Notes under the pieces: model-generated | Told to the model about the DNA's origin: nothing | The model's database searches: none | The model's input: only the letters and a program-made list of their open reading frames with translations | Made by a program: the position numbers and the translations under genes | Assembly: GCA_030630165.1 (NCBI GenBank) | Contig: DAOVNN010000001.1 | Span: 1-28,448, forward strand | Reading direction: 5' to 3' | Length of the DNA: 28,448 nt | DNA from: Candidatus Krumholzibacteriota bacterium | GTDB lineage: Bacteria; Krumholzibacteriota; Krumholzibacteriia; Krumholzibacteriales; Krumholzibacteriaceae | Shown: in pieces, positions 7,354-9,642 of the stretch | Layout: the number at the start of each line of letters is the position of its first letter | Numbering within the stretch: the stretch's first letter is position 1

Positions 7354-9642
7354 TCAGAACCGGTTCTTAGCTTCAGTGATAAGGTCTGAGGATGTCTCTG
7401 AACCGCCGGGAAAGACGGCAAATGAGCTTGAAGGATATACCTTGTTTTCTATAAAGAGGTTACGGTCCTTCAGGACGGTGGTCATGAATTCCAGGAGTCG
7501 ATGTTCGAGGTATTCGATCCTGTGATGACTTTCGAGCGAGATCACGGCGAAGACGTCCGGTTCGATCCAGGAGAAATAGTCGGTCTTACGCACTTGTTTT
7601 CTTACCCCTATACTCAATTCGTTGATCAGCTCGAGTGTGGAGTTATAGTCAGTATTGAGGATCTCTTTCAACCCGTTAATCCGGTAGAGGGTGACGATGA
7701 ATCCATGATGGTACCTCTCTGCCCGTTCGATTTCCTCATTTAATCTTTCCAGCAGGATCTTCTGGTTGGACCGGAGAAGATCATCGAAGGAGGCAGCTTT
7801 GCTGTCGTGCTTATCAAGCCCGCTTTCGTGAAGGATGGGCAGGATTATCTCGGAGATCCTCGACAGCAGTTCCAGTTCGTGGGTGCCGAAGATCGATGGA
7901 TCGAGGGGTGATCCGGGTATACGGTCGTATCCGATGAAATATGATTTAAACTCAGCAGCTTCGATAAAAGGATAGATTACGAGAGACCGGTAAGGCTGTG
8001 GACTGTCATACGCCCCGATATCCCTCGAAAGGAAACTGATGCATTCCGGCTTGTCTTTGTCAATAGCGCGCAGCAGCATCTGTTCGTCGTATGCTCTGAG
8101 AGAGGCCAGTTTCTGATTATCATCAGGGAATCCGTGATACGATGCATCTTCTTTGTTGCCACCGATGAAATGGAAGCTTCCCCTGCTTGCACCGATTATC
8201 GGCGAGATAAGTCCGGGAAGCATCTTGATCTTTTCATTGAGGGTCTGGGCTCCCATGAGGGCGGGAGTCAGGCCTGAGAGATCTTCGAGGCTGCTCATCT
8301 TGCGGGCCTGCCTCAATTCTCTCAGTTGTGTATAGACGAAGAAGCCCAGTTGGAAACGAAGCACGTCCTTGATCTTGAAGAAGCTCTCGAGTGAATCGAG
8401 ACTCGAGAATTCGAAGAGTGCCACTCCCAGTGGATCCTCGTGTTCCAGCGGTATGTAGATCGATGTAAGGGCATCCCTGCGACCTGAGATCTTGAGACCG
8501 GCGTCATGCTTCGCCTCGGTCATCATCATCTCTTCCCTGTTCACGTACGCACGTGCGAGGCTCCCCTTTATACAGTGTATACGGGGGGCCCTTCCGCCAT
8601 CCTGAATCTGCTGATCGCTACCGCCGAGGATGAGCCAGTCGCCTTCGTCGGTGGCGGTATAAATAGTGACTGTATCAGCGGAGAGGATATCCGCGAGCGC
8701 GCGACACAGAAAGCGAAACTTGTCGTGAAATTCTATGTCTTTCTGGAAGAGGGATTCTATATAGTTTCTTATCCTGAATTCTGTTTCCCGGATCTTCTCC
8801 GTGTCGATCCGGAGATGTTGCGCGAGGATAGGGGATATCTTCGTTGCCAGAAGATCGATAGTATCCCTGTCATTTTCGTCGAGCTTCCGCTCTCCCTCGC
8901 TTGTCGATACGTTGAGCACTCCGACCAGAGTCTTACCCATGATGAGGGGTGCTGATACGGAACTACTGATCGTATCCCGCTCTCTTCCGTTCCTGTAAAG
9001 AGGATTGTCGACGACGTCATGGACAAGCAGTGCTTTCCTGGCTTCAGCCACGTTTCCAGCGATTCCCGAGCCTACCTTCTGTCTCGTACCGGAGATCACC
9101 TCTTCGCTGAGACCCATAGCATACCCGATATAGAGTTCTCCGGTCTGTTCGGAATGCAGCATGATAGAACCGGACGAGGCCTCGACGGCCCTCACCGATA
9201 TCTCGAGAAGCCATTTAAGCAGTCTGTCGCGGTCAGTTATCCTGTTGATATACTGCAGGGCCTGTTCGAGATGTTTGGGCCAGGGAGGTTTGTCGGGAGG
9301 ATCCTCTTCCATTTCCTTTTCCGCGGCACAGTCTGCCAGGTTGGAAGCAGCTTCGGAAGGATTCAGGAGCTTGACGCCCGCCTGTGTGAGCATGCCGATC
9401 TCAGCATTGTAGGGTTCGCCCTTACCCGAGACGACGACATAGTCCGCATTTTCGAACGCCTTGAGAAAAGATCTGTCGGTGAATACGGGCACACCTATGA
9501 TCTCAGCGACTTCCATGGCAACGGCCCTGGGATCACGATCATATATTCCCAGGATCTCGAAACCCGGGTCACGGTGATATTCGCTGAGGATGTTTAGCTC
9601 GTCCTCGCCGCCGCCAAGAATGGCAATCCTTGCCGCCTCCAC
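7354..9642 (-). CDS. Multi-GAF signalling protein: Rossmann-like N-terminus, about three GAF domains, degenerate GGDEF domain with intact RxxD
   Basis: GAF1 is clear (SGSIML..GELY..AMGL..GSGIAGNVA..SAPL..LVGVLNV); two further GAF-like blocks are weaker. The C-terminus LLERLNEEIERAERY..RKTDYFSWIEPDVF resembles a GGDEF fold. The track start is 9708; GTG at 9642 with GGAGG 5 nt upstream is preferred (762 aa). Confidence 0.8.
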   Translation of the reverse strand: MEAARIAILGGGEDELNILSEYHRDPGFEILGIYDRDPRAVAMEVAEIIGVPVFTDRSFLKAFENADYVVVSGKGEPYNAEIGMLTQAGVKLLNPSEAASNLADCAAEKEMEEDPPDKPPWPKHLEQALQYINRITDRDRLLKWLLEISVRAVEASSGSIMLHSEQTGELYIGYAMGLSEEVISGTRQKVGSGIAGNVAEARKALLVHDVVDNPLYRNGRERDTISSSVSAPLIMGKTLVGVLNVSTSEGERKLDENDRDTIDLLATKISPILAQHLRIDTEKIRETEFRIRNYIESLFQKDIEFHDKFRFLCRALADILSADTVTIYTATDEGDWLILGGSDQQIQDGGRAPRIHCIKGSLARAYVNREEMMMTEAKHDAGLKISGRRDALTSIYIPLEHEDPLGVALFEFSSLDSLESFFKIKDVLRFQLGFFVYTQLRELRQARKMSSLEDLSGLTPALMGAQTLNEKIKMLPGLISPIIGASRGSFHFIGGNKEDASYHGFPDDNQKLASLRAYDEQMLLRAIDKDKPECISFLSRDIGAYDSPQPYRSLVIYPFIEAAEFKSYFIGYDRIPGSPLDPSIFGTHELELLSRISEIILPILHESGLDKHDSKAASFDDLLRSNQKILLERLNEEIERAERYHHGFIVTLYRINGLKEILNTDYNSTLELINELSIGVRKQVRKTDYFSWIEPDVFAVISLESHHRIEYLEHRLLEFMTTVLKDRNLFIENKVYPSSSFAVFPGGSETSSDLITEAKNRF

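Follow-up and report, generated by a model that had tools for sequence, protein, structure and literature searches.

The closest described systems to the protein reported here are PelD, PopA, and SgmT, in which a degenerate GGDEF domain reads cyclic dimeric GMP (c-di-GMP) at the inhibitory site (I-site). In Bacillus cereus PelD, alanine changes at R363, D366, and R395 abolish c-di-GMP binding (PMC7112168), and so does R763A, a change of the RxxD arginine, in SgmT (PMC3509222); in WspR, R242 forms the site together with R198 from a neighboring GGDEF domain (PMC2270323). The third I-site arginine is R390 in PleD, R402 in PelD, and R794 in SgmT, and its role is described for PelD and SgmT (PMC7112168, PMC3509222). 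Here, we report gene X, which encodes a 762-aa soluble protein on the minus strand (7354..9642) of a 28,448-nt stretch of DNA from Candidatus Krumholzibacteriota bacterium (contig DAOVNN010000001.1, positions 1 to 28,448; the window hereafter). Its C-terminal domain (C-domain) has the GGDEF fold, is catalytically dead, and keeps the three positions that were changed in B. cereus PelD. On the basis of sequence comparison and structural modeling, X is probably a c-di-GMP receptor that acts through a protein partner; it would work like PelD, PopA, and SgmT, and it is a member of none of them.

X shares with PelD/PopA/SgmT-type receptors the RxxD spacing and the third I-site arginine on helix alpha3, and differs from each of them elsewhere. 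PelD is a membrane protein of the pel polysaccharide operon, whereas X is encoded in a mutS/mutL context and has no transmembrane segment (highest 19-residue hydropathy, 1.39). We considered and rejected PelD membership, i.e., X has neither a membrane anchor nor a pel context, and gives no match to Pfam PelD_GGDEF at E <=1. X also has three GAF-type domains and a coiled-coil stalk, and its C-domain fold is closest to canonical cyclases rather than to PelD. There is one parallel: extended Gram-positive forms of PelD carry an N-terminal domain of Rossmann type (short-chain dehydrogenase/reductase, SDR) without cofactor residues (PMC7112168), and X has a Rossmann-like N-terminal domain (N-domain). 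SgmT of Myxococcus xanthus has a clear output, i.e., a histidine kinase with a receiver and the partner DigR, and X has no such output. PopA of Caulobacter crescentus carries receiver domains upstream, not a Rossmann-like domain and GAFs, and is unrelated to X in sequence outside the GGDEF fold. In layout, X resembles IsPadC (PDB 5llw), in which a stack of sensor domains leads through a coiled coil to a GGDEF domain; however, IsPadC and the GAF-GGDEF cyclases are active enzymes with GGEEF and D-x-D, and X has lost the whole active site (A-site).

The degenerate domain covers residues 670-784 (7357..7701, minus strand; assigned from the model, Foldseek, and VIA). Please note that residue numbers follow a 784-aa reading of the open reading frame (ORF); subtracting 22 gives the position in the 762-aa protein. 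The domain is recognizable only by profile or fold, because its Pfam GGDEF (PF00990) score stays below the gathering threshold (16.6 bits when the complete protein is scored, 20.7-21.6 when only the domain is, vs 23.8); a Pfam GGDEF match at E <=0.01 was found in 20 of the 32 family members. A profile of 69 orthologous C-domains searched against the PDB returned 13 sequences at E <=1, all of them diguanylate cyclases (best E 5e-6), and the nearest sequence matches outside the X family are GAF-GGDEF cyclases. The model of the C-domain, built with its alignment, has a predicted local distance difference test score (pLDDT) of 94.7. All of its top 50 Foldseek matches in the PDB are GGDEF domains, with 4urq at a template modeling (TM) score of 0.80 (E 1.6e-8) and PleD at TM 0.73, and all of the top 30 among the Swiss-Prot AlphaFold models are GGDEF proteins. 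VIA gave Z 18.1 to 4urq (Thermotoga GGDEF; root-mean-square deviation 2.1 Å over 136 residues), 15.3 to PleD, and 14.7-14.9 to WspR. An earlier reading of this DNA from its letters alone (the original prediction) had called the domain a GGDEF domain and named a structure model with Foldseek as the check; the fold is indeed the five-stranded alpha/beta fold of GGDEF domains, with helix alpha0 in front. As in the cyclases, the model has RxxD where alpha2 meets beta2 and R737 on alpha3, and the signature occupies the beta2-beta3 hairpin.

What the domain has lost is the catalytic machinery. Alignment to cyclases and the model place E716-P-D-V-F720 (7549..7563, minus strand) on the beta2-beta3 hairpin where GG(D/E)EF should be, and R676-I677-N678 (7675..7683, minus strand) at the metal-binding D-x-D, as had been proposed: the "kin" of the ortholog profile aligns on the cyclase D-L-D. 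The guanine-binding region N-D..GH..GD is absent. The domain also ends early, another point on which the original prediction was right, with positions 11-148 of the 161 in Pfam GGDEF matched. The structural alignment stops at PleD residue 438, which we take to precede K442 and R446, and so the C-terminal phosphate-binding Lys/Arg is missing from X; a phosphate-binding role for K442 and R446 is given in PMC3509222. In summary, the C-domain has lost the A-site, i.e., the signature, D-x-D, the guanine-binding Asn/Asp, and the C-terminal Lys/Arg, and with it every catalytic residue. The proposal that X does not make c-di-GMP is supported, the catalytic site being dead and drifting among orthologues: distant forms differ at E716, at the D-x-D position, and in the signature, and EPDVF is not conserved outside the order.

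The I-site is retained. The minus-strand translation reads R707-K-T-D710 at 7579..7590, then YFSWI, then EPDVF at 7549-7563, just as originally read, and the spacing of RxxD five residues before the signature stands, since the ortholog profile puts RKTD..WIExDxF on RDTD..WGGEEF and REVD..YGGDEF of cyclases. The third I-site arginine is R737 (7498..7500, minus strand), which pairs with the leading R of "AERIR" in 6d9m; it follows R707 by 30 residues, whereas SgmT and B. cereus PelD have a distance of 31-32 (PMC3509222, PMC7112168). Close orthologues comprise about 115 proteins at 43-93% identity, all from Krumholzibacteriota-type metagenome-assembled genomes, and they keep R707, D710, F712, W714, E716, and R737, plus much else. 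These close forms alone cannot separate an I-site from a structural constraint, because the whole RKTDYFSW strand is conserved among them; the distant ones can. Full-length relatives at 25-33% identity were found in the fetched loci, with more divergent ones in families missed by the first search, and a C-domain profile search of 151 genomes of the phylum found the domain in 66. RxxD was followed in 70 close and 18 distant orthologues, and a 32-sequence C-domain alignment reached down to 20% identity to the query. Conservation of RxxD, on which the original prediction had staked its reading, holds in 70/70 close and 18/18 distant sequences, down to that 20%, together with the third arginine. 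The distant forms read RKTD, RKSD, RETD, RGSD, RGTD, RATD, RSSD, RSTD, or RACD, and chance would produce RxxD at one fixed position in roughly 0.3% of sequences. Invariant columns in the 32-sequence alignment number only eight, i.e., E659, R662, R665, R707, D710, E726, R737, and P767. Three of the eight lie on alpha0 in the stalk, where Y666 and H667 are near-invariant. R665 likely corresponds to the cross-linking arginine of WspR (R198) and PleD, as judged from alignment ranges, motif spacing, and the WspR description (PMC2270323).

Among the best 149 representatives of a library-wide profile search, 95 have a dead signature with RxxD and 53, which score next, a canonical GG[DE]EF with RxxD; these 53 share E..R..RY and mostly the alpha3 arginine too, in a count that is biased by the profile. 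Despite this bias, the count shows that X has kept what marks a cyclase of the I-site type, while nothing is left of the active site. Where public sources name relatives of X, they mostly do so plainly as "GAF domain-containing protein". Being subthreshold in Pfam GGDEF and mostly named for GAF only, such proteins can escape a census of c-di-GMP components. Separately, five proteins (P0144, P0155, P0166, P0194, and P0230; 408-578 aa) have two GGDEF-like stretches each, the best-scoring of which retains RxxD with a noncanonical signature, e.g., xGK[YF]G; they may be another dead-GGDEF family.

The window's genome, which is 90% complete, has the enzymes with which such a receptor would work. Two of its genes encode canonical cyclases, one with RKID..GGEEF and one with REID..GGDEF. 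In a third GGDEF-type gene, a 347-aa plus-strand ORF on contig C80, a response-regulator receiver is joined to a GGDEF-related domain with GGDDF and D-I-D; the Pfam GGDEF match stops halfway through the model (positions 5-89), and the protein is possibly an atypical cyclase. HD_5 (HD-GYP-type) genes number four, with two side by side on contig C4, and there is one clear PilZ gene, so that the organism is equipped to make and degrade c-di-GMP. No EAL domain was found in this 90%-complete genome, and degradation of c-di-GMP appears to depend on HD-GYP alone. Across the phylum, canonical GGDEF domains occur in 151/151 sampled genomes, with 1-9 matches each. With a dead GGDEF domain and an invariant I-site throughout the class, X is most likely a second-messenger receptor. 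We consider c-di-GMP the best candidate for the messenger because the I-site triad is invariant, the A-site drifts, and canonical cyclases are present in all 151 genomes.

Outside the C-domain, the whole-protein AlphaFold2 (AF2) model (pLDDT 78.6) shows, on the minus strand, an N-terminal Rossmann-like alpha/beta domain (residues 26-129, 9322..9633; AF2 secondary structure, degenerate GFO_IDH_MocA/DapB_N type), GAF domain 1 (145-299, 8812..9276; also Pfam GAF_2, E 1.2e-17), GAF-like domains 2 (303-478, 8275..8802; its exit helix is long) and 3 (490-627, 7828..8241), both from AF2 and Foldseek, and helix alpha0 or coiled-coil stalk (641-666, 7711..7788), which holds the invariant E659, R662, and R665. 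With the whole model, Foldseek ranks the phytochrome-activated cyclase IsPadC best (E 2.9e-18) and also returns tandem-GAF regulatory modules from CyaB2, phytochromes, and PDE5/6/2. Similarity of the N-domain to Rossmann families is weak, i.e., E 0.014 for Pfam GFO_IDH_MocA, E 0.1-0.3 in the PDB profile search for DapB, Rex, and ornithine cyclodeaminase, and atlas features of 0.83 for a Rossmann-like assignment. We examined a Rex-like, NAD(H)-sensing role for this domain, since a GGG loop and D57 are invariant within the order, and rejected it: other families read GAQ, GVR, or GQD, and neither GGG nor D57 is kept outside the order. By sequence, the N-domain is a degenerate Rossmann-like module in which no NAD site is conserved. 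All families retain it, and so does a mini form of 257-271 aa in one family (f4) that has the N-domain, alpha0, and the dead GGDEF domain with RKTD or RACD, and no GAFs (L029:5046-5822, plus strand; L031 and L032, minus strand; genomes G001, G006, and G005). Because the mini forms keep just these parts, the conserved core is taken to be the N-domain, the stalk, and the I-site domain, with the GAF domains as accessories. Pfam yields only GAF and a weak Rossmann-type match on X, in agreement with the proposal that it has no evident enzymatic or DNA-binding output.

These features suggest how X may work. X would be a cytoplasmic, probably dimeric, rod-shaped sensor; its most plausible ancestor is a diguanylate cyclase regulated by GAF domains, whose C-domain stopped making c-di-GMP. 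The ligand would be bound at R707, D710, and R737, probably in the form of an intercalated dimer, as PleD, WspR, and PelD bind it, and R665 on alpha0 is a candidate for completing the site from the neighboring protomer. If R665 does so, the ligand would lock two C-domains together and shift the coiled-coil register. From there, the signal would reach the N-domain, the only other universally kept module, which presumably contacts the protein partner, while the GAF domains may serve as optional extra inputs; in most families, X is probably transcribed from its own sigma-54 promoter (see below). A complex prediction with two copies of the C-domain and two c-di-GMP molecules scored 0.02 vs a mark of 0.42 and is not used either way.

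X lies between mutS (9715..12297, minus strand; Pfam MutS_I to MutS_V), directly 5' of it, and mutL (5468..7216, minus strand; Pfam), 137 nt 3' of it, with miaA (4544-5467, minus strand; Pfam) next after mutL. The order mutS-X-mutL was found in 21/21 distant loci examined, from eight families of the class, with one locus of family f6 ending before mutS. The longer order TPR/SPOR-mutS-X-mutL-miaA holds in 12/12 loci at 25-33% identity, and also in families f5 and f6 and for the mini forms of f4; in one 43%-identical relative, mutL is 7.5 kb away and mutS still adjoins X. In the f4 mini forms, the ATG overlaps the mutS stop codon in 3/3 genomes (ATGA twice, TGATG once), mutL is close behind, and there is neither a mutS spacer nor a sigma-54 element. 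Because of this overlap, the arrangement indicates that translation of the mini form is coupled to that of mutS.

In the window, the 72-nt spacer between mutS and X contains a sigma-54 type -24/-12 element, TGGCTC-N5-TTGCT (9692..9707, minus strand). The consensus is TGGCAC-N5-TTGCW, with GG at -24 and GC at -12; the element is the single match in the window, vs 0.06 expected, and rpoN is present in the genome. A match at >=9/11 positions lies 42-91 nt 5' of the N-domain in 43/50 related loci, vs 23/1380 (1.7%) random windows, and some related loci carry perfect TGGCAC-N5-TTGCT copies. Because the element is conserved to this extent over random windows, most X copies are predicted to have their own regulated sigma-54 promoter. 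The element also bears on the start of the gene, which the longer, 784-aa reading of the ORF places at GTG 9708. We rejected that start: GTG 9708 falls in the sigma-54 element, and orthologues begin 22 codons later behind GGAGG. We place the start at GTG 9642, with the stop at 7354-7356, because GGAGG stands 5 nt before this codon and almost all orthologues begin at it. A scan of 4400-14700 for the sigma-70 consensus and terminators gave nothing above shuffles, and no terminator-like site was seen on the minus strand between X and mutL; transcription from the predicted sigma-54 element may also feed mutL and miaA.

How far the I-site argument goes depends on what else could hold these residues in place. 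Several points weigh against a c-di-GMP receptor: co-occurrence of X with cyclases is not discriminating, because all 151 genomes carry canonical GGDEF; the Pfam scan of X gave no output domain; and in SgmT the equivalent site has no detectable phenotype beyond localization (PMC3509222). The alpha0 E/R/R and the position of R737 are moreover general in canonical I-site-type cyclases, in a profile-biased sample, and could be inherited structural residues. This last point leads to a less likely alternative, i.e., that the C-domain is a nucleotide-free structural or dimerization module in which R707, D710, R737, and the alpha0 arginines are retained for salt bridges or for a protein-protein surface, e.g., one facing the N-domain or a partner. 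E..R..RY with the alpha3 arginine being common to canonical cyclases would fit it, as would conservation within the order of the whole RKTDYFSW strand with W714, which suggests a surface wider than a ligand pocket. However, RxxD is dispensable for the fold, only "the majority" of cyclases having it (PMC2270323), and beyond the order E716, W714, and F712 drift while R707, D710, and R737 stay invariant, which fits a small-ligand site better. A different ligand for the site, i.e., some other cyclic dinucleotide or guanine nucleotide in place of c-di-GMP, is quite unlikely; candidates would be (p)ppGpp, cyclic GMP-AMP (cGAMP), or pGpG. In PDB 9g85 and 9g86, both among the fold matches, PleD is indeed seen with (p)ppGpp in addition to c-di-GMP, and nucleotide pools may be unusual in a genome with four HD-GYP-type genes and no EAL. 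Yet the triad of RxxD plus an arginine is the established c-di-GMP I-site, the tested degenerate GGDEF receptors with the triad all bind c-di-GMP (PMC7112168, PMC3509222), and the guanine- and phosphate-binding residues of the A-site are gone. That same loss makes it extremely improbable that X still works as a diguanylate cyclase by way of an unorthodox active site: activity is reported for some cyclases whose signatures are altered, e.g., AGDEF in VCA0965 (PMC3974145), but X lacks both glycines, the metal Asp, the guanine-binding Asn/Asp, and the C-terminal Lys/Arg, and the replacements are not conserved.

The gene order raises a different question, namely whether X is a mismatch-repair accessory factor that binds MutS or MutL, with the GGDEF-like domain a relic. 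The constant mutS-X-mutL order in distant loci and the start of the mini form on the mutS stop speak for such a factor, and the overlap keeps a repair role a possibility; we nevertheless regard the relic version as very unlikely. The whole housekeeping block TPR/SPOR-mutS-X-mutL-miaA is equally conserved, and for this reason we do not read the position of X as proof of a repair role. In E. coli, mutL, miaA, and hfq stay together and are not known to share a function. Most X copies are also predicted to have a sigma-54 promoter of their own, an invariant I-site would not be retained by a relic, and no c-di-GMP receptor acting on MutS or MutL was found in the literature searched. A version that keeps the I-site at work, i.e., X as a c-di-GMP-gated mismatch-repair partner whose N-domain binds MutS or MutL and tunes repair, and with it the mutation rate or recombination barriers, is unlikely; if true, the sigma-54 promoter would be a second layer of control and the mutS-coupled mini form the core arrangement. 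Our preferred reading stays with a c-di-GMP receptor and a protein partner.

It is the receptors, not the enzymes, that form the poorly charted part of c-di-GMP signaling. The suggestion that the system is undescribed holds within the literature searched, in which nothing relevant was found on Krumholzibacteriota and c-di-GMP. Because X is single-copy, occurs in most families of the class, and belongs to genomes with only 2-9 cyclase-type genes each, it is likely a main c-di-GMP reader in a class of uncultured bacteria. The mini form (about 260 aa; N-domain, stalk, and dead GGDEF domain) offers a compact construct for asking how an I-site by itself can drive output, and the mutS/mutL position, with the mutS stop overlap in one family, makes second-messenger control of mismatch repair directly testable.

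The surroundings of the locus in the window are on the same strand throughout. A DUF512 radical-SAM gene and der are located 3' of miaA, and TPR, TPR-SPOR, and two MiaB-type genes 5' of mutS. The last two are tandem MiaB/RimO-type radical-SAM methylthiotransferase genes (14831-17433, minus strand) with a 4-nt overlap, and the pair is also present in one related locus (L013).

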